Under the pieces are notes generated by a model that did not search any database, had not been told where the DNA came from, and saw only the letters and a program-made list of their open reading frames with translations. 64,000 bases of DNA, from the NCBI GenBank assembly GCA_963786805.1, contig CAWBAK010000001.1:80211-144210 (forward strand), written 5' to 3'. The position numbers and the translations under genes were made by a program. Shown one piece after another: positions 48,035 through 58,883 of the stretch. Source of the DNA: an uncultured Actinomycetes bacterium. GTDB lineage: Bacteria > Actinomycetota > UBA4738 > HRBIN12. Numbering within the stretch: the first letter of the stretch is position 1; each line of letters starts with the position of its first letter.

Positions 48035-51000
48035 GTGGACGACGAGCCTGGCCGCATCGAGCCCGTGACCGAAGAGGCGCGGATCCAGACCTTCCTGATC
48101 GCCGACGTCCGCGGCTACACCCTGTTCACGCAACAGCGCGGTGACGAGGCGGCCGCGAAGCTCGCCGCCAAGTTCGCTCGGATCGCGCGCGAGACCGTCC
48201 AGCAGCGCGGCGGCAGCGTCGATCGAGCTCCGGGGAGACGAGGCGCTCGCCGTGTTCTCCTCCGCCCGGCAGGCCGTCGCCGCTGCCGTCGATCTCCAGG
48301 AACGGCTGGTGGACGAGACCATCGACGACCCCGAGCTTCCGCTGCCGGTCGGAATCGGACTGGACGCTGGCGAGGCCGTCCCCGTCGAGGCCGGGTACCG
48401 GGGCGGCGCGCTCAATCTCGCTGCGCGGCTGTGCGGGCAGGCGGGCCCGGGCGAGATCCTCGCGAGCCGCAGCGTCACGCATCTCGCGCGCCGGGTCGAG
48501 GGCGTGCGCTACGTCGACCGGGGGAAGGTGCAGCTGAAGAACCTGACCGATCCCGTCGAGCTGGTGCGGATCGTTCCGGAGGGCGTCGATCCGGCCGAGC
48601 GTCTGCGGACGGCACTGCCGCCGACCGGCCCGCCGCGTCGCCGTACGCGCGTCGAGGATCGCGATCGCCGCCGTGGTCGCCCTCGCGGTCGCCGTCGGCG
48701 CCACGATCGTCCTGCTCCCCGACGATAGCCGAGCCGACGATCGCGGCGGGAGCGGTCGGGTTCCTCGGCCCGTCAGGAGACCTCGAAGGCACGGTGGGCA
48801 TCGGCGAGTTCCCACGGGGGCTCGCGTCGGGAGCCGGGTCGCTCTGGGTGGCCGACCAAGAGAGCGGATCGCTGATCCAGGTCGATCCGTCGACCTTCCA
48901 GGTGGAGGAGCGGATCCCGGTCGGCGTCGGGCCGAGCGGCGTCGCGATCGCCTCCGGCCTCGTGTGGGTCGCCAACACCGATGAGCGGACGGTCTCGATG
49001 GTCGACCCGCAGGCGCACCGGGTCGTCCAGACGGTGGTCGTCGGCAACGGGCCGGCCGGGATCGTCGCCGACGGCGATCGTGTCTGGGTCGCGAACAGCG
49101 TCGACGCGACCGTCACCGAGATCGACGCGACCGACGGAAACGTCGTGGACACCTACCCCGTCGGGGAACGACCTGTCGCCTTGGCCGTCGCCGACGGCGC
49201 GGTCTGGGTCGCGAACGCCTCGGACGGAACGGTCAGCCGGGTCGTCTCGGGCGACGGGGAGACGCTGACGACCCCCGTCGGCCGGGGACCAGGCCGCGAT
49301 CGCATCCGGCTTCGGGTCGCTGTGGGTCGCGAACACCGAGGACGGGACCGTGACGACGATCGACCCGGCCACAGGGTCGGTAACGGGCACCGAACGCGTC
49401 GGGCAGGAGCCGGTCGCGCTCGCGGCCGCCGGAGACGGCATCTGGGTCGCGAGCGCTCGGGACGGCACCGTCCTCAAGATCGACCCGGCGACGACAGCGG
49501 TCACCGACATCTACGAGATCGGGAACGAACCGCGGGCCCTGACGGGGAGCCGAGGGCGGGCTGTGGGTCGGTGTCGAGGCGTCGCCCGCCGCGCATCGGG
49601 GAGGGACGCTTCGGCTCGTGTCGGAGCAGCCGATGAAGATCGATCCTCACGGCGGCGACCTCGTCTCCGACCACCGTGCTCGCATCGACGTACGACGGCC
49701 TCTTGACGTATCGGCGAACCGGCGGGGCGGCGGGTCTGACGGTGGTCCCGGATCTGGCCGTGTCGCTCCCCGTGCCGACCGACGAGGGTCTGACATACAC
49801 CTTCACGCTCCGCGAGGGGATCCGTTTCTCGAACGGCCACGTCCTCGAGCCCCAGGACGTCGTGGCCACCTTCGAGCGCGTGCTGGTCGGGAACAAGTAC
49901 GGCCGGTTCTACGTGCCGGAGCTCGTCGGCTGGTCCACCTGCACACCACGAAGATCCCGCGGCGTGCGACCTATCCGAGGGCGTCGTGCCCGACGAGGAG
50001 GCAGGAACCGTTACGTTCCACCTGGTTCGGCTGGCGCCGAGCTTCCTCAAGATCCTCGCGAAGTCATGGTTCGCGATCGTGCCCGCCGGCACGCCGATCG
50101 ATCTCGAGGGCGAGCCGATCCCTGCGACCGGTCCCTACCTGATCGGTGACGTCGGCGACGATGGCTCGCTGGTCCTAGAGCGGAACCCGATGTTCCGGGA
50201 GTGGTCCGCCGACGCACAGCCCGATGGCTTCGCGGACCGCATCGAGGTCACGGCAGGCGTCGACCCCTGACGAGCAGGTGGCCATGGTTGAACGGGGAGA
50301 GGCCGACCTCGCGCTCGAGCGGGGTGCCTCTGGAGCTCGTCGAGGAGCTCGAGCGGCGGTCCTCGGATCAGCTGGTGAGAATCGCCTTGGCCTGCGATCG
50401 GGGCGCTGTCGCTCAATACCGCGACGTACCCATTCGAGAACGCGGACGCGCGAAGAGCGGTTGCGTATGCGCTCGAGCGAGGTGAGCTGGTCCGGGCCTT
50501 TCGCGAGACCGCCGCGATCAGCGGAGTCGTCGGTGGTGGCCGAGGAGCCCGTGGTGACATGCCAGATCCTGCCACCGAACACGCCGGGGTATGCACCCTA
50601 TTGCCCTTACACGAGATCCGGCGCGGAGGTGGACGGGACGTGGGCGGGCCCGGATCTCTCGTTCGCACGCCAGCTGGTTCAGCGCTCGGGGACGGCGGGT
50701 GCGGAGGTGTCGATCGCGATGTCGCCGTGCTTGGAGGTCGACCGCGGAGTCGGTCGCGGATACGCTCCGAGGGCCTGGGGTACCGCGTGGTCCTAGAGAC
50801 CGACGGCCCGCTGCGACCCCCAGAGGACGATTGCTGGTTTAGCCCCCTCACGCCGGACGCAGACATCTCCTCCACCGCCTGGTTTTGGGACTACCCGTCC
50901 CCTGCGCAGTTCCTGGTGCCGCTGCTTTCGTGCGTCCAGCCCGAAGGGGTCGCTTCCCTTCGACGGCTCGCCCGCCGTGACGGGGGCCGGGGGCTTGTCC

Positions 51001-51712: not shown

Positions 51713-52935
51713 TCAAGCTCCGCCTGATGCCTGACGTTTCGTGTTCGGCTGAGGCTTGACGCTCAGGCCGTCGGCCCTGACCTTGCGAACGGCCCCGATC
51801 CGTTGCCGTGCCACGGTCTTCATCAGGTGGTTCTTGCTCCATACCTGGATCACAGTCTCGTCTACGAACACGTCCACGAGCTCACCCTTGAAGGCGTTGT
51901 CACCGAGAAGAGCTGGTTGTCGACCGAGACCATCCCGTTGGAGCCGACCCTTCGAAGCACCCACTGTCCACGATGATCCTCGGCCGCATCGACGGGGATC
52001 GAGGCTTCGTCCTTGGAGATCGGGGCCAAGCGGAATCGGTCAGCTGGGGTCGCCATCTCCAGAGCCTGGTGGGGACGCTCGGTGTTGTAGTCGGTGACCC
52101 AGGCATCGAGCTCGCTCTGCGCGGCCTCGAGCGAGGGGAACGAGCGATCGGCCAGGAACTCCTTGCGCAGGCTCTGGTGGAATCGCTCGATCTTGCCGGT
52201 GGTGGTCGGTGAGCGCACGGCGGTGTGGCGGTGGGAGATGCCGTTCTCCCGGCAGATCCGATCGAACAACACCTCGACGGGCTGAGGCCCGAACCGGCCG
52301 GTGAACACTTGCCGTTGTCGGTCAGGATCTCGTCGGGGATCCCGTAGGTGCGAAGCGACGCGCTGAGCACCGCGCAGACGGCCTTGGACGTCGCCCTGGT
52401 GACCAGGCCGGCGGCGATGCAGAACCGGCTGTGGTCATCGACGCCGGTGACCACCTTCAGCTCGGTCGCGTCGTCCAGGAGCACGCCGCCCATCACGTCC
52501 ATCTGCCACAGCTGCATGGGGCGCTCCCGCTCCCACCGACGGAACTCGTCGCGGCGCTTGCGACGCCGTCGCAGCTCGATCAGGCTGGTGGCGGCGAAGA
52601 CAGCGGTAGATCGCCGAGCGGGAGGGGACCGGATCCACGCCGGAGCGGGCGAGCTGATGCTCGATCCGCCGAGGCCCCCAGCCCGGATGCTCTCGTCGCA
52701 GCTCGCAGATCGCGGCCTCGATCTCCGGATCGGTCTGGTGCGGGCACCCGGTCGGCCGATGTGACCGGTCGGCCAGCGCGGCCAGGCCGCCCTGCTCGTA
52801 GCGGGCGATCCACGCGTGCACGCTTTGGCGGGAGACGCCGAGGCGACGGGCGACCTCGACGACCCTCCAGCCATCCTGCACGACCGCTAGCACCGCTTGG
52901 TACCGCTGCTCCATGACGCTGAGCTCCACCAGCAC
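51713..52935 (-). CDS. IS481-family DDE transposase (three frameshifts as assembled)
   Basis: HTH (VARRLGVSRQSVHAW), LWQMD, DDHSR, LTDNG, GKIERFH and YNTERPHQAL motifs. Confidence 0.88.
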
Positions 52936-53104: not shown

Positions 53105-53120
53105 ACACGACATTTCTGCG

Positions 53121-53193
53121 TGGAGACGAGCGGACTCGAACCGCCGACCCCCTGCTTGCAAAGCAGGTGCTCTACCAACTGAGCTACGTCCCC
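53121..53193 (-). tRNA. tRNA-Ala(TGC)
   Basis: GGGGACGTAGCTCAGTTGGTAGAGCACCTGCTTTGCAAGCAGGGGGTCGGCGGTTCGAGTCCGCTCGTCTCCA cloverleaf; CCA not encoded. Confidence 0.97.
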
Positions 53194-53230: not shown

Positions 53231-53842
53231 TCATGCTGACGGCGTCGGCGTCGGCGTCGGTGTCGGTGTCGGGGTGGGCGTCGGAGTCGGAGTTATCCCC
53301 GGAAGCGGCTGTTCCACCATCCCCTCGTCCGGCACCCGGTCGAGGCAGGTGTGGGGACACGCGCTGCCCGTGTAGCTCGAGAGCGCGGCCCAGGAATAGC
53401 TCGTGCGAGAGCGGCCGATCGTCAGCTTCCGGAGCGCGACCTCGACCCAGGCCGAGCGGCCGCCGTCCTTCCCGCTGGCGAGCGTGTCGACTTCCACCTG
53501 TCGTCCGCCCGCGCGGAGGCGGAAGAGCCGCGCGTCCAGGTCACGTCCATCCGACCGGATGACCGCCACGTAGTCGGGCTCCTCGTCTCCGAGCGTGTCG
53601 AGCTCGACCAGCAGGTATCCGCGGTCCCAGACCTGGGCCACGGTCCAGCCGGCGAACGTGACGAACGTCCATCGCGGCGGCGGCGAGTCGTGGTCGAAGC
53701 GGACCGTCTCGAGGTCGAACCTCCCGTCCACGTCGTTCGGGTCCGTCTGCCTCGTGTGGTTCGCCGAGGCCGGCAACGCGAACGCGATCGCCGCCACGAG
53801 CGCGACGAGCACGCCCAAGCCCGCCGCACGATGCCCTCTCAT
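53231..53842 (-). CDS. Secreted protein with C-terminal (PT)n tail
   Basis: Signal peptide ending ASA; DPNDVDGRFDL; C..TC.DRVP; ATGA overlap with the upstream gene. Confidence 0.75.
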   Translation of the reverse strand: MRGHRAAGLGVLVALVAAIAFALPASANHTRQTDPNDVDGRFDLETVRFDHDSPPPRWTFVTFAGWTVAQVWDRGYLLVELDTLGDEEPDYVAVIRSDGRDLDARLFRLRAGGRQVEVDTLASGKDGGRSAWVEVALRKLTIGRSRTSYSWAALSSYTGSACPHTCLDRVPDEGMVEQPLPGITPTPTPTPTPTPTPTPTPSA

Positions 53843-55059
53843 CGGCTCGCACCTCGTCGAACCGTGACGACCGCCCGTACGCTCACCCAGATCGCGAGCG
53901 CGAGACCGGTCGCGACGAGCACCGCCGGAAGGAGATCGCTTCCACTCGGTGCGCTGAGCGACCCTCCGATCCACGCGTCCCGGCCTTCGCGCCACGCCAC
54001 GACGGCGACCACCGCGAGGACTCCGTTCCGCGCGAGGAGGAGACGGTAGTCGCGTGGCCTGGTACTTCCGAAGCAACCGCAGTCCAGGCGACGCCCGACC
54101 CGGATACGTCCGACGGCGATCGCGCTGGAGAAGACGAACAGAACGGCCAGCGAAGCAAGGCCCGCGGTCGAGACGAGACCCAGGAACGGAAGCGCGGCGA
54201 GCCCGAGCTCGACGACCGGCACGCCGACGAGCGCGGCCCCTTCGAGCGGCCCCAAGCGATACGACGCGAGCGCACGCGCCCATCTCCGGCGCCCGGCGAT
54301 CTTCGCGACGGCCGCCGACCCGAACGCGATCGAGAGCACCGCTGCGGCCACTCGTCCGGCGCTTCCGACCGACTCGGCCGACACGGCGGTCCACGTCGCG
54401 ATCCCCACGATCGCCGCGAGCGCGACCGCGTGCGCGACGCGCCACACGGGCCGGGACGCCGCGTCGGCGAGCCGCCCGACGAGCGCCGCGCCCTCCTCGG
54501 TCGTCCGGGTGCGCATCGCAACCATCGCGCTGAGCCCTCGCGCGAGGCCGAACGGCGCGAGCAACGCCGCTCCGAGCGCCGGCCTTCCGCTCGCGAGCGC
54601 GGCCGCCGAGACGACGACGAGCGTCCCGTTCGCGAGGAACGTGAAGAACCCGACCCCGAGCCCCATCCCGTACAGGAACGCCGCCGGCGCGAAGGGGAAG
54701 AAGGTGCGCCACCAATCCGGGACCTGCCGCCGCAGTTGCGGTACCGGGACCGGCAGTCCGAACGCCTCTCGAGCGAGGTAGAGCGCTCCGACCCCCGCGA
54801 TCGCCACGAGCCCGGCCGCACCCCACGGAGCTCCGAGCGCCGACCCGATCGCGCCGAGGACGGCGCCGAACGCGCCGGCCGCCGCCGCCGCGCCCGCGAC
54901 GTGCAGCGCGAGCACGATCGCCCACCGGCTCCTGCGTCCCCCGTGGACCACGGGGGTGATGGTTTCGACCATCGACAGCCCTCAGGGCCCGAACAGCGTC
55001 GTCAGGCCGGCGACGACCGACGCCGCGACGACGCCGGCGACGAGCTCGCCGGTCAGCAC
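53839..55059 (-). CDS. MauF/DsbD-like - MauE fusion membrane protein, candidate selenoprotein (UGA at codon 26)
   Basis: GTG 55059 reads MLTGELVAGVVAASVVAGLTTLFGP-TGA-GLSMVETITP in frame with ORF 53839-54972; RQVP..W..YG..LG.GF segment; C-terminal MauE motif DCGCFG...LARN. Confidence 0.75.
54951..54981 (-). promoter_or_regulatory. SECIS-like hairpin immediately 3' of the in-frame UGA
   Basis: UGA-GGGCUGUC-GAUGGU-CGAA-ACCAUC-ACCCC: perfect 6-bp upper stem, G at loop position 2, GGG/CCC lower stem. Confidence 0.6.
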
Positions 55060-55066
55060 TCGGCCG

Positions 55067-55591
55067 TCAGCACCGGACGGTCAGCTCCTGGTACGTGATG
55101 CAGAACACGCGCAGGCTCTGGTGGCAGTACCCCGAGTTCGACGCGTCGCCGTTGATCCGGATCCTGGAGGGCGAGCAGCAGTCCTGGATATGCCGGATCC
55201 GGCCGTTGCAGCACCGGCTCCATCCGCCGCCGTACCGCGGGTTCCTGACGAACGTGTACCGCTCGGGGACCACGGTCTGGCACACCTTGCGCCGGGTCTG
55301 GCGCGCGGACAGGTAGATCAAGCCGCCGTCGTCGACGGCGTACCCGTACACCGGATGGACCGGGAATCCGAACGCGTCGGTGCGCGAGTTCGGCGCGTAG
55401 GGATGCGGACACGAGCCCGTCGTGAAGAGGTGTCCGCAGATGTGGTACGCCTCGGCGCGCTCCGGCGCGAGCGCGACGGCGACCATCGGCCCGCCCACCA
55501 GCGCGACGACCGCCCGACCGAGCCGGCCGAGGAACGAGCGCCGGCTGGTCCGGCGCGCGAGCTCGGTCCCGGCGCGCTCGACGCTCCCCAT
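55067..55591 (-). CDS. Tat-exported Cys-rich protein resembling an amine dehydrogenase light chain (MauA-like)
   Basis: SRRSFL Tat motif with AEA cleavage site; 10 Cys; W..CC......DCC...YC...FC pattern; lies between mauD-like and mauE-like genes. Confidence 0.7.
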   Translation of the reverse strand: MGSVERAGTELARRTSRRSFLGRLGRAVVALVGGPMVAVALAPERAEAYHICGHLFTTGSCPHPYAPNSRTDAFGFPVHPVYGYAVDDGGLIYLSARQTRRKVCQTVVPERYTFVRNPRYGGGWSRCCNGRIRHIQDCCSPSRIRINGDASNSGYCHQSLRVFCITYQELTVRC

Positions 55592-56100
55592 CAGCTCGCG
55601 CGAACCTCGTCGGCTTCGGCGATACGGCGCCGTGCGGTGTCGACGAGCCCCTCGACCTGCTCGAGCGAGTTCACCGTCCCCTTCGAGCGCACGATGCCGT
55701 CCTCGTCCAGGACCACGACGAACGGGACGCCGGGGACGAGGTAGCGCACCTCGAGCTCGGGGTCCGACACGATCTGCGGCACGAGTCCCGCGGCCGCGGC
55801 GGCGGCCGGCAACGCCGGCAGGATCTGCTCGCAGATCGGACACGTGGCCGAGACGAACGCGAGGAGGCGGCGGGGGCCGGGACCACCGACGATCGCCGTC
55901 GTCCCGTCCCGGCCGCGTGCGGTCCGAGGCTCGGGCGCCTCGCCGATCGGCGGCCCCTCGTCGTCCACCTCGAGCGCGCCGAGCGGTTGGAGCCGGAGGT
56001 GCAACACGCCGATCTGGCGGGCGAGGGCGACGACCACGATCGTGAGGACGGCCAGCAAGACCCACTGGACGACGAAGGCCGCGGCCCACCAGCCCGACAC
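55591..56100 (-). CDS. mauD: MauD-like membrane-anchored thioredoxin-fold protein
   Basis: LARQIGVLH.RL.P.GAL, GP..G, FVSATCPIC and G.VRSKG.VNSLEQ motifs. Confidence 0.8.
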   Translation of the reverse strand: MSGWWAAAFVVQWVLLAVLTIVVVALARQIGVLHLRLQPLGALEVDDEGPPIGEAPEPRTARGRDGTTAIVGGPGPRRLLAFVSATCPICEQILPALPAAAAAAGLVPQIVSDPELEVRYLVPGVPFVVVLDEDGIVRSKGTVNSLEQVEGLVDTARRRIAEADEVRAS

Positions 56101-56106
56101 GCGGCC

Positions 56107-56748
56107 TCAGCGCCTCTTCGACGCCTCCGGCTCGGCCGGAGCGGGCGACTCGTCGGCGGATGTATGGATCGAGGTCGACACCAGCGAACCCGGCGCCGTC
56201 CAGAGCGGATCACCGTTCTTATCCAGGAACTGTAGGACCGGGGTCCCGTCGGCGGTGAGCCCCATGATCGCTCGGAGCTCGCCGTCGGCGTTCAACAGGC
56301 GGATGATCGGCGTTCCCTCGGCCGCGAGGCCGATGCGCGCGCGGACCTTGCCGTCCTCGTCCTGCAGCGAGATCGTCGGCGAGCCCTGCTGGGCGAGCGA
56401 ATAGACGAACCCGAGCTCGCCTTCCTTGTTGCGGAGCGCCAGGGTCGGCGAGCCCTCCGAACCCAGGCCGAACTTGGCGCGCACCTTGCCGTTGCGATCG
56501 ACCATCGCCATGCTCGCCGAGCCGTCGGAGAAGAGCCCGAACGTGGCGCGCACCTTCCCGTCGTCGTCCGCGATGGCCAGACCGGCCGACCCGTCGGGCT
56601 GCACGCCGAAGCGAGCGCGGAGCTTCTCGTCGGTTCCGTAGAACGACAGGAACGGGAGATCGTCGTTCGTCACGCCGAACCGGGCCCGGACGCGGCCTTC
56701 CGAATCCTCGATCTCGATCTCGCCCGCCCGGATGACACGCTTCCTCAT
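56107..56748 (-). CDS. Beta-repeat protein (about 8 repeats of 22 aa, D..GKVRA.FG..DG.P.L)
   Basis: Periodic motif visible in the translation; SD GAGGGG; stop is 6 nt before the mauD-like start. Confidence 0.75.
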   Translation of the reverse strand: MRKRVIRAGEIEIEDSEGRVRARFGVTNDDLPFLSFYGTDEKLRARFGVQPDGSAGLAIADDDGKVRATFGLFSDGSASMAMVDRNGKVRAKFGLGSEGSPTLALRNKEGELGFVYSLAQQGSPTISLQDEDGKVRARIGLAAEGTPIIRLLNADGELRAIMGLTADGTPVLQFLDKNGDPLWTAPGSLVSTSIHTSADESPAPAEPEASKRR

Positions 56749-56957: not shown

Positions 56958-58071
56958 TCACTCTTTCCCGACACGCTCGATCCGCAGCGTGGTTGCTTCG
57001 AGCCGCGCCGGGATCGGGTCCACCCCGATGCCGGGGCCTGCCGGCACCGCCATCGTCCCGTCCGGGTCCAGTTCGAACGGCTCGGTGAGGTCTTCATCGA
57101 AGTAGCGCCGGCTGGCGCTCGTGTCGCCGGGGAGGCGGAAGTTCGGCATCGCCGCCAGCGCGAGGTTCGTGGCCCTTCCGATCCCCGTCTCGAGCATCCC
57201 GCCGCACCAGACCGGGACGTCCTGTGCCTCGCACACGTCGTGGACCCTCACGGCCTCGAGGATCCCGCCCACCCTGCCCTGCTTCACGTTCACGATCCGG
57301 CACGCCCCGAGCTCGATCGCGGCCGCGGCGTCGGCGGCCGACCGGATGGACTCGTCGAGGCACAGGTCGGTCCGCAGGCGCGCCTGCAGCTTCGCGTGGT
57401 TCACGAGGTCCTGGTGGTGCAACGGCTGCTCGATCATCAACAGGCCGAGCTCGTCCAGCTGACGGAACACGTCGACGTCCTCGAGCCCGTACGCGGCGTT
57501 CGCGTCGACGCTCAGGGCGATGTCGGGATGCGCCTCCCGGACCGCGCGCACGCGTTCGACGTCGGTCCCGGGCTCGATCTTGAGCTTGATCCGGAGGTAT
57601 CCCTCGGAGAGGTAGCCGTCGACCTGCTCGAGCAGCTGCGAGGTCGACGGCGCGATGCCGACCGAGACACCGCACTCAACCCGGGACCGTTCGGCGCCGA
57701 GGAACGTTGCGAGGGAGCGCTTCTCGGCGCGGAGCTCGGCGTCGAGCAGCGCGTTCACGAGAGCCGCCTTCGCCATCGGATTGCCGCGAACGAACGCCAA
57801 CGCGCGCTCGATCTCCGACGCCGACGGGTCGCCGGCGTGCGAGCAGCGCGGGGGCGAGGAAGTCGCGGAGCACCAGCCAGGCGCCTTCGTTCCATTCCTC
57901 CGAGAAGTCGGGCTCGGGACTCGCGACGCACTCCCCCCACCCCTCCGCGTCCTCGGTCTCGACGCGCACCAACACGCACTCTTTGTGCGTCATCTCGCCG
58001 AAGCTCGTCCGGAACGGCCGGACCAGCGGGAGACCGACGAGCCGCAGCTCCACCGACCGCACACGCGTCAT
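56958..58071 (-). CDS. menC: o-succinylbenzoate synthase / N-succinylamino acid racemase (frameshift near 57835)
   Basis: PFRTSFG, RIKLKI, VDANAAY, IEQPL, CLDESI, WCGGMLETGIGR and PGDTSAS motifs. Confidence 0.88.
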
Positions 58072-58883
58072 CGGGCCGGCTCCCTCGCGAGGACGTAGCC
58101 GCTCACGCCCTCGTGACGGAGGAATCCGACCGCGACCAGGCCGGCCGCCATGCACGCTTCGATGGCCTCGGCGACCGCATCCCGGTACCGGGCGGCGAGC
58201 TCCGGGTTCCGCTCACGGAGCTCGAGCAGATCCGCCGGCACCCGGACGAGGACCCCGCGCTCCGCCTCCGGTGGAAGGCCGACGAAGTTCCACTCCTCGT
58301 CGATGACCTCCGGGGCGTCCACGTCGAAGGCTCTCGGTTCTGGCTCGCGCTCGAGGTCCCACCGGATGACGAACCGGTCGGAGCGCTCCCCACGGTTCAG
58401 CGCGTCGGTCATCTCCCCGTAGAAGTTCCGCTCGAAGCGATCGGCGACGGCGCCCAGCTTGTGGAGGTTGAAGTACGCGTTGCGCGCCACGAGCGGATCG
58501 AAGGTCCACCGTGCCACCGAGATCCCTTGCTCGAGTCCCTGCGCGCGCTGGGCGAGCTTGAGCGCGTAGCCCACGCCTGCATGCCGGCGGTCCGGGAGCG
58601 TCGCGAGCATGTGCGAGTGCACGTGGAGGCCTTCGTCGGGATCGACCCCGGCCCACCCCAGCACGTACCCGATCAGCGTTTGACCGGCGAACGCGCCGTA
58701 TGGCACGTTCCCGCTCTCGCCGAGGGCTCGGATCATCTCCCGCGGGATCGTCTGGTGATCTCCCCAGGTCGCGATCATCACCTCGATGATCGCGTCGCAG
58801 TCCTCGAGCGATCGCAGCGGTCGCAGCTCGACCGCCGCCGCATCCGCGGCGCGTCCCGCCAAGGCCCACGCCTCGCTGGTCAC
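58068..58883 (-). CDS. GNAT N-acyltransferase (NSAR-associated type)
   Basis: HSHML, GVGYALKLAQR, WTFDPL..RNAYFN..KLGA and NFYG.M.D motifs. Confidence 0.85.
   Translation of the reverse strand: MTSEAWALAGRAADAAAVELRPLRSLEDCDAIIEVMIATWGDHQTIPREMIRALGESGNVPYGAFAGQTLIGYVLGWAGVDPDEGLHVHSHMLATLPDRRHAGVGYALKLAQRAQGLEQGISVARWTFDPLVARNAYFNLHKLGAVADRFERNFYGEMTDALNRGERSDRFVIRWDLEREPEPRAFDVDAPEVIDEEWNFVGLPPEAERGVLVRVPADLLELRERNPELAARYRDAVAEAIEACMAAGLVAVGFLRHEGVSGYVLAREPAR

Follow-up and report, generated by a model that had tools for sequence, protein, structure and literature searches.

A window of 64,000 nucleotides from an uncultured Actinomycetes bacterium (assembly GCA_963786805.1, contig CAWBAK010000001.1, positions 80,211 to 144,210 of the forward strand) encodes a small, exported, cysteine-rich protein, here called X. 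X is probably a strongly diverged relative of the light chains of tryptophan tryptophylquinone (TTQ) amine dehydrogenases that has kept the light-chain maturation genes, is paired with a secreted protein named sec206 and does without TTQ. As judged from sequence, X is not part of a TTQ amine dehydrogenase. The main features are listed below with positions counted in the window, by which is meant the whole stretch of DNA that was analysed; Tat stands for twin-arginine translocation.

55067 to 55591, minus strand: X, 174 aa, exported by Tat, with 10 Cys and a single Trp (basis: translation, TAT_signal_seq, conservation)
55448 to 55591, minus strand: leader of X, residues 1-48
55070 to 55447, minus strand: mature domain of X, residues 49-174
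55591 to 56100, minus strand: MauD-like protein, 169 aa, membrane-anchored, with a thioredoxin fold and a CPIC motif (TIGR02661)
53839 to 54972, minus strand: MauF::MauE fusion protein, 377 aa (PF07291; MauF by BLASTP and hhalign)
54373 to 54972, minus strand: MauF-like membrane domain of the fusion, residues 1 to about 200
53995 to 54354, minus strand: MauE domain of the fusion, residues 207-326, with the CGCFG active-site motif
53231 to 53842, minus strand: sec206, a secreted protein of no known family, with a Sec-type signal, a domain of about 150 aa and a Pro/Thr-rich tail

Protein X and its family

An initial annotation of this DNA had reported the open reading frame of X without its strand, together with a Tat signal, ten Cys, a single Trp and three cysteine motifs, and translation of the minus strand recovers all of them. 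The Cys are residues 52, 61, 104, 127, 128, 138, 139, 156, 164 and 174, the last being the final residue of the protein; the sole Trp of the window protein, W124, lies within GGGWSRCC, and DCC (137-139), SGYC (153-156) and VFC (162-164) follow. The leader, SRRSFL...AEA, matches NCBIfam TAT_signal_seq (TIGR01409) at 18.3 bits, above the cut-off of 16.7.

Conservation was followed in three alignments: A1, of 22 close relatives of X; A2, of 22 sequences from two subfamilies, the second of which carries an insertion of about 25 residues; and A4, of 50 sequences from both subfamilies. The ten Cys, W124, D137 and Y155 are present without exception in all three, so that the Trp and the Tyr singled out by the initial annotation are invariant across 50 aligned relatives. 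Further invariant residues are CGH 52-54, R70, D72, D87, R100 and R126, as well as R145, N147, G148 and D149 of the RINGD motif, whose I146 is invariant in A1 and A2 but not in A4. Some relatives bear an additional Trp that is not conserved (GH[I/T]WTT in P0088 and P0131, KWGYP in P0093); a single Trp is therefore a property of the window protein, and a single conserved Trp that of the family. The X gene is real and under constraint, and its conservation is far beyond chance.

The family is large: 745 clusters (at 90% identity) match X at E<=1e-3. Among the matches listed (120 clusters), identity to X ranges from 66 to 95%, no Pfam domain is present, and the proteins, where named, are called 'hypothetical' or 'Tat signal domain-containing' and come from metagenome-assembled genomes (MAGs) of Actinomycetota. 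With P0131, of the second subfamily, as query, 1,237 clusters were matched, a figure that may take in proteins of the first subfamily. X is present in 63 of 151 genomes sampled from the order. In a collection of species-representative genomes, 213 stretches encode a relative of X, of which 80, representing 80 distinct loci, were kept and underlie the synteny counts over 80 loci; their titles nearly all name MAGs of Actinomycetota or Actinomycetes, with a few labelled only 'bacterium' or otherwise. Many of the long matches that were opened (P0133, P0135, P0187, P0213, P0145, P0176, P0257) proved to be merged or frameshifted gene calls running across neighbouring genes.

Two candidates were set aside. 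P0249, a 1002-aa repeat protein returned by the search of representative genomes, is an unrelated repeat. The RZ-type zinc finger PF20173 gives weak matches in 28 of 50 members (best E 3.7e-5). Four members were checked, and the three of them that have a match score 9.6-13.6 bits, where the cut-off is 27; these matches are regarded as compositional, because they fall on differing Cys/His-rich stretches, and the zinc-finger identity was rejected. No description of the X family was found in the literature searched; the precursor sequences of decRiPPter possibly hold relatives.

Accessory genes and gene order

The gene upstream of X encodes a MauD homologue, and its stop codon shares one base with the start codon of X. 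It matches TIGR02661 at E 2.1e-24 and 86 bits, under the equivalog cut-off of 188.6. A tblastn search of plasmids with this protein returned 29 records, with an annotated mauD under the match in 19 and redoxin- or thioredoxin-like or unannotated genes in the other 10; all seven plasmid loci that were opened are amine-dehydrogenase clusters. Downstream of X, the MauE domain of the fusion protein matches PF07291 at E 4.7e-17 and 62.9 bits (cut-off 27). The N-terminal half of the fusion is homologous to MauF, with 37% identity to Paracoccus denitrificans MauF over 87 aa by BLASTP (E 3e-6) and an hhalign probability of 99.6% between alignment A6 (MauF-like) and alignment A7 (E 6.8e-25, 172 columns). 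For MauF there is no Pfam model with a curated cut-off, and P. denitrificans MauF itself matches 0 Pfam families.

The motif TWSPCG[YF]S is invariant in 3 of 3 canonical MauF proteins and is kept in the subfamily-2 versions (A6). In the window and its close kin, the MauF-like domain begins, with MVETI (54970-54972), just past the site of this motif, whose Cys is thus lost.

In the seven canonical loci, the order is heavy chain, MauE, MauD and light chain in every case, with MauF upstream in 3. Among the five subfamily-2 loci, MauE-MauD-X-MauF-like is found in 3, mauD and X are adjacent in all, and the MauF-like gene lies downstream in 4; moreover, a single metagenomic open reading frame, P0136, encodes first E, then D and then X. 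Across the 80 X loci, mauD is present in 80, MauF::E in 75, the repeat gene rep213 in 66 and sec206 in 62, and wherever the flanks suffice on both sides (50 loci) the MauF-like gene and sec206 are each found in 50. Homologues of all three light-chain accessory genes surround X, which stands where mauA stands. The case for MauA ancestry, weak on MauE and MauD by themselves, becomes much stronger once MauF, the order of the genes and the leader are added.

A 2026 preprint reports that MauE stands in for E. coli dsbB by means of its CXC motif, with MauD seen as a DsbA-like partner, and describes CXC-FG, with its single CXC pair, as the MauE active site (bioRxiv 10.64898/2026.03.05.709764). A second MauE above the Pfam cut-off (87 bits) is encoded on the contig of X but outside the window (G000:C1:5970-6350, minus strand), a weak third one lies on contig 4, and VKOR has no match in the genome. 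The genome apparently depends on disulfide formation of the MauE type, for which it has more than one gene copy, and the second MauE together with the lack of VKOR is consistent with the MauF::MauE copy being dedicated to X.

Two arrangements were observed in the second subfamily. One genome carries a tandem pair of X genes between mauD and the MauF-like gene (L094:7667-8883, minus strand). In others, the MauF-like gene after X is about 500 aa long (L091:6507-8033, minus strand; L092:8694-10163, plus strand; L097:1425-2942, minus strand), the proteins keeping TWSPCG[YF]S and adding a C-terminal domain of about 300 aa. This domain matches the LpqB beta-propeller in 1 of 3 proteins, below the cut-off (E 0.0022), and could be a fused stand-in for sec206 or for a heavy chain. 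Comparison of sec206 with it by hhalign gave 0.3%, that is, no similarity.

Absence of the amine-dehydrogenase core

The heavy chain MauB (PF06433) has 0 matches in the genome of X, which is 93% complete, and is found in 0 of the 151 genomes of the order; the same model found the heavy chain on 2 of 2 plasmids used as positive control. For MauG (PF03150), the best match in the genome of X remains under the cut-off (E 0.38, 12.3 bits). MauG occurs in 2 of the 151 genomes, one of which (G004) has an X gene on the same contig, about 340 kb away. With one conserved Trp, a heavy chain in 0/151 genomes and MauG in 2/151, X does not belong to a TTQ amine dehydrogenase, and the claim of the initial annotation that it cannot form TTQ is supported.

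A beta-propeller protein with NHL repeats (533 aa, 48035-49636, plus strand) is encoded about 3.6 kb past the end of the cluster, beyond an insertion sequence (IS) element. It was rejected as a stand-in for the heavy chain, being present in 0 of 80 related loci.

Leader, fold and the TTQ site

Light chains for comparison (alignment A3) were taken from seven amine-dehydrogenase loci, reached by searching plasmids with the neighbouring MauD protein, in Paracoccus, Methylobacterium, Indioceanicola, Novosphingobium, Haematobacter, Cupriavidus and Pseudomonas. The two Trp of TTQ (W114 and W165 of the P. denitrificans precursor) are invariant in all seven. For methylamine dehydrogenase (MADH) we take the residue numbering to be W57, D76 and W108, anchored here solely by the invariant columns of A3. 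In hhalign comparisons with these light chains the leaders alone align, with a probability of 96.2% for A1 (E 2.3e-9) and 94.5% for A2, and the resemblance extends upstream of the RR motif.

A first AlphaFold2 model of X, built from 22 close sequences, was poor, with a predicted local distance difference test (pLDDT) of 58. The mature domain alone, modelled with the 50 sequences of both subfamilies, reached a pLDDT of 90.2 and a predicted template modelling score (pTM) of 0.83. In this model W124 and D137CC are borne by a beta-hairpin (precursor residues 119-128 and 131-140), and a long last strand spans 161-173. Ranked against 48,161 chains of the PDB, its top two structural matches are the light chains of aromatic amine dehydrogenase (AADH) and MADH, with Z values that are low in themselves (4.6 and 4.2; next match 3.1), and both alignments reach the C-termini. 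A fold resemblance to the light chains is thus predicted by the model.

As to the second TTQ Trp, Y155-C156 of X lies 8 residues before C164, and MauA has its second Trp-Cys pair 12 residues ahead of the last Cys. Tyr155 plausibly takes the position of the second TTQ Trp; this is a claim of spacing, because the tools used return no residue equivalences. When hhalign was run with a low mact setting, VFC164 was placed opposite the Trp-Cys of MauA, which means that sequence by itself cannot fix the equivalences.

The predicted partner protein sec206

The ATG of sec206 overlaps the stop codon of the MauF::MauE gene (ATGA). In its alignment (A5), the protein shows an invariant D-x2-D-x2-G-x2-D near the N-terminus and a CxxxC pair. 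It matches no Pfam or NCBIfam family, a PDB search with the A5 profile gave nothing useful, and its matches in the protein atlas are hypothetical clusters only.

Of the 151 genomes, 60 have both X and a strong sec206 match (E<=1e-30), 3 have X alone, 3 have sec206 alone and 85 have neither. The genomes with X alone have fragmentary contigs and those with sec206 alone are 60-81% complete; a Fisher test overstates the association, because kin are not independent. The 60 include five unpublished genomes (G032, G040, G053, G074, G147), and without them the counts are 55, 3, 3 and 85; other tallies include the unpublished genomes G151, G167, G195, G262, G312, G360 and G372. Rearrangement has not broken the linkage of the two genes: within one family of the order, sec206 is found upstream or on the opposite strand, still within about 3 kb.

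The structure of a complex was predicted from mature X (A4) and residues 31-185 of sec206 (A5). The interface score ipSAE was 0.89, 0.89 and 0.88, against 0.19 for the best of three controls; the pLDDT of the partners is at least 83 and the runs agree in 100% of contacts. This mark is reached by 58 of 80 solved complexes and by 2 of 110 mismatched pairs, counts that are rough, own alignments having been used. The score cannot stem from a memory of MADH, because no similar complex has been solved. Binding of X to sec206 is a prediction that the model supports. On X, the predicted interface is the conserved N-terminal lobe (precursor residues about 64, 72-76, 78, 82-85, 89-96 and 100, with 169 and 171), and W124 and Y155 are outside the residues named.

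A proposed model for maturation and pairing

X would be exported by Tat through its long, MauA-like leader. Outside the membrane, the membrane-anchored, DsbA-like MauD, with its CPIC motif, would oxidise the ten Cys of X to five putative disulfides, and MauD would in turn be re-oxidised by the DsbB-like MauE domain (CGC motif), presumably linked to quinone and fused to the MauF-like domain. Folded X would then bind co-encoded sec206 through its conserved N-terminal lobe (precursor residues about 64-100) to yield a small complex of two subunits at the cell envelope.

TTQ cannot form in such a protein, because it has one conserved Trp and there is neither MauG nor a beta-propeller heavy chain. 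The invariant W124, D137-CC and Y155-C may have been inherited from a TTQ-site scaffold. They could now serve as a structural core, as a ligand pocket or as the site of a different cofactor, any activity being conjectural.

Arguments against light-chain ancestry

Several results weigh against this reading, most of them from sequence comparison. The light-chain family PF02975 is absent from X, from the whole 2.9-Mb genome (E<=10) and from all of the 50 family members (0/50, E<=10); as positive control, the same model recovers MauA and AauA at E 1e-53 to 1e-54. The TIGR02659 match to X is confined to leader residues 4-39, at E 0.025 and 14.4 bits, where the cut-off is 196.85, and TIGR01409 scores about the same there, so that the leader match may be largely the generic Tat motif. 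Once the leaders are removed, hhalign of the mature domains returns just an 11-column xxDCC match with a probability of 1.8%, and sub-regions peak at 7.9% (C-terminal halves). Whether run in local, global or low-mact mode, or on the N- and C-terminal pieces, hhalign returned only xxDCC and C..TxxCP motif matches, at 7.9% or less. Neither X nor the A4 profile matched any PDB sequence at E<=10. The profile comparison with the light-chain family that the initial annotation had called for thus finds no match over the mature domain. Its description of X as 'amine-dehydrogenase light-chain-like' finds indirect support in the alignable leader, in the flanking MauD, MauE and MauF homologues and in the two top structural matches, and none in the PF02975, TIGR02659 and hhalign comparisons of the mature domain.

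In the same way, a Foldseek search of the PDB with the good model found nothing at E<=0.001, and no light chain among the rows shown. With the poor first model, 2agy_H came third (E 1.1) and 1mda_L 32nd, again with nothing at E<=0.001. As to the genes, sec206 was not found within 8 kb on either side of X in any of five subfamily-2 loci, which means that this partner is not universal in the wider family. MauA is present in just 10.2% of MauE-bearing species according to the preprint (bioRxiv 10.64898/2026.03.05.709764). MauE thus appears to be a generalist that mostly occurs without MauA, and a MauE/MauD pair beside a Cys-rich protein is no proof of MauA ancestry.

Finally, the RNA evidence for the X locus is negligible, consisting of short contigs from relatives in one metatranscriptome. 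Four sequencing runs hold 5-7% of the sampled words, one of them recorded as RNA. In this metatranscriptome, one contig of 191 nt, with 4 differences, crosses the mauD/X junction (55531-55721); DNA carry-over is possible, and uncovered parts carry no meaning.

Alternative explanations

It is possible, though unlikely, that X bears a protein-derived cofactor built on its single Trp, such as a cross-linked Tyr-Trp or Cys-Trp quinone or one derived from Tyr; sec206 would replace the beta-propeller heavy chain, and the two would make up a small quinoprotein dehydrogenase of a new kind. The residues that resemble the TTQ site by position, W124, D137-C-C and Y155-C, are invariant in 50/50 sequences of both subfamilies, a dedicated partner of X is predicted, and the accessory genes of a cofactor-bearing subunit are retained. 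Nevertheless, the conserved five-gene cluster holds no candidate for a cofactor-forming enzyme, be it MauG, a flavoprotein or a radical SAM enzyme; five disulfides can account for all ten Cys; W124 and Y155 fall outside the residues named for the predicted interface; and invariant aromatic residues in a core are equally expected from a purely structural role. A bolder version, which we regard as improbable, sees in X and sec206 a two-subunit extracytoplasmic quinoprotein, unseen so far, on a scaffold derived from the TTQ light chain, its cofactor made from Trp124 and Tyr155 or a nearby Cys without MauG. If true, this would add a new cofactor to those derived from protein residues and supply a missing link in how tryptophylquinone enzymes evolved.

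A convergent origin is also rather improbable. X would then be unrelated to MauA, a disulfide-knotted secreted protein (an inhibitor, a binding protein, or a product resembling bacteriocins or RiPPs, peptides that are made on ribosomes and modified after translation) that happens to stand beside a general MauE/MauD system. Convergence would have to explain the homologues of three independent accessory genes (D, E and F) around X, in canonical order in subfamily 2, and the second MauE above the cut-off elsewhere in the genome, which argues that the copy beside X is dedicated. It also has to face the first and second ranks, among 48,161, of both PDB representatives of the light-chain fold, and the likeness of the leader to MauA leaders upstream of the RR motif. 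Moreover, X is a folded domain of 126 aa (pLDDT 90) and no short peptide.

Far less probable still is that X acts as a redox component of the MauE/MauD pathway and not as its client, for instance as a disulfide relay through its two vicinal pairs of Cys. Such a role would fit the two invariant CC pairs (127/128 and 138/139) and the translational coupling of X to mauD. It would also fit the comparison with DsbB, which has two Cys pairs. The dedicated binding partner predicted for X speaks against a relay, as does its presence in merely 63 of the 151 genomes, MauE being more widespread. For MauE, a single CXC pair is described in the preprint (bioRxiv 10.64898/2026.03.05.709764), which counts in favour. 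Against it, an adjacent CC within the DCC motif is a feature of canonical MauA too. We know of no relay role for that pair in MauA.

Relation to known systems

The closest known proteins are the TTQ light chains (MauA, AauA; PF02975/TIGR02659), which are the sole consistent structural match of the predicted model. Both they and X have a long Tat leader that can be aligned and a small Cys-rich domain in which the DCC motif is preceded by a conserved Trp, and X occupies the mauA position next to the MauD, MauE and MauF homologues. Unlike the light chains, with their two invariant Trp and 12 Cys (as counted in A3 for P. denitrificans), X has a single conserved Trp and 10 Cys, as well as a conserved N-terminal lobe of about 45 residues. 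It also differs from them in that a heavy chain and MauG were not found in its order beyond the two MauG occurrences, in its predicted partner and in its restriction to MAGs of Actinomycetota. To our knowledge, every TTQ light chain described so far is an obligate partner of a beta-propeller heavy chain, and its cofactor is completed by MauG.

With the MauE/MauD system, as described in the preprint (bioRxiv 10.64898/2026.03.05.709764), the window shares a CGCFG MauE and a membrane-anchored MauD with a thioredoxin fold and CxxC. In both, the pair adjoins a Cys-rich exported protein, but in the window its client is not MauA, and its MauE is fused to a MauF-like domain that lost TWSPCG[YF]S.

In Streptomyces, the decRiPPter study describes candidate 'RiPP' clusters with mauE and mauD, precursors with at least 8 Cys and no other mau genes (PMC7794033). 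These clusters and the X locus both place an actinobacterial MauE (and MauD) beside a small Cys-rich product. X differs from the precursors as described there, the comparison being one of descriptions and not of sequences, in that it has a Tat leader, a folded domain of 126 aa and a predicted partner, and it is no evident peptide precursor.

Another single-Trp quinone cofactor, cysteine tryptophylquinone (CTQ), is found in the gamma subunit of quinohemoprotein amine dehydrogenase and in LodA/GoxA. The CTQ proteins set a precedent for a quinone cofactor made from one Trp and a Cys in a small Cys-rich subunit. Their systems need a radical-SAM enzyme and a protease, or a flavoprotein. The conserved X cluster holds no maturation enzymes of the CTQ type, and the searches run gave no sequence or fold match to CTQ proteins.

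The X family is thus large and unannotated, and appears to keep MauF, MauE, MauD and a light-chain-like scaffold without the heavy chain, MauG or the second Trp. It may offer a natural dedicated client, in Actinomycetota, for the newly proposed MauE/MauD disulfide pathway, and may show what the scaffold of the light chain does, or once did, when TTQ is lacking. In parallel, X and sec206 form a concrete candidate for a new subunit pairing and possibly a new cofactor.

Surrounding genes

Further features around the cluster are as follows.

56107 to 56748, minus strand: rep213, 213 aa, composed almost entirely of repeats of about 21 aa (GKVRAxFGL...) (basis: open reading frame, translation)
57676 to 58155, minus strand: N-terminal domain of an MR_MLE enolase-superfamily protein
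56958 to 57800, minus strand: C-terminal domain of the same protein
53120 to 53193, minus strand: tRNA-Ala
52435 to 52935, minus strand: HTH/LZ_Tnp_IS481 part of a transposase
51900 to 52874, minus strand: rve integrase core of the same transposase

The first gene of the apparent operon is rep213, 6 bases upstream of mauD. Its product, without a signal peptide, has sub-threshold Pfam matches only and belongs to no family. Its position upstream of mauD-X in 66 of the 80 related loci suggests, by synteny only, that it is a member of the X system. Beyond it, the MR_MLE gene (56958-58155, minus strand) shows up as two open reading frames that overlap by about 125 bases; a frameshift, an error of sequencing or a split of the gene could account for this. 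It is syntenic with the X cluster in 63 of 80 loci.

On the other side, an IS481-like transposase just past the tRNA-Ala (51900-52935, minus strand) extends over two overlapping frames, which points either to programmed frameshifting or to a copy that is broken. In the genome of X, the conserved cluster ends here on its downstream side.

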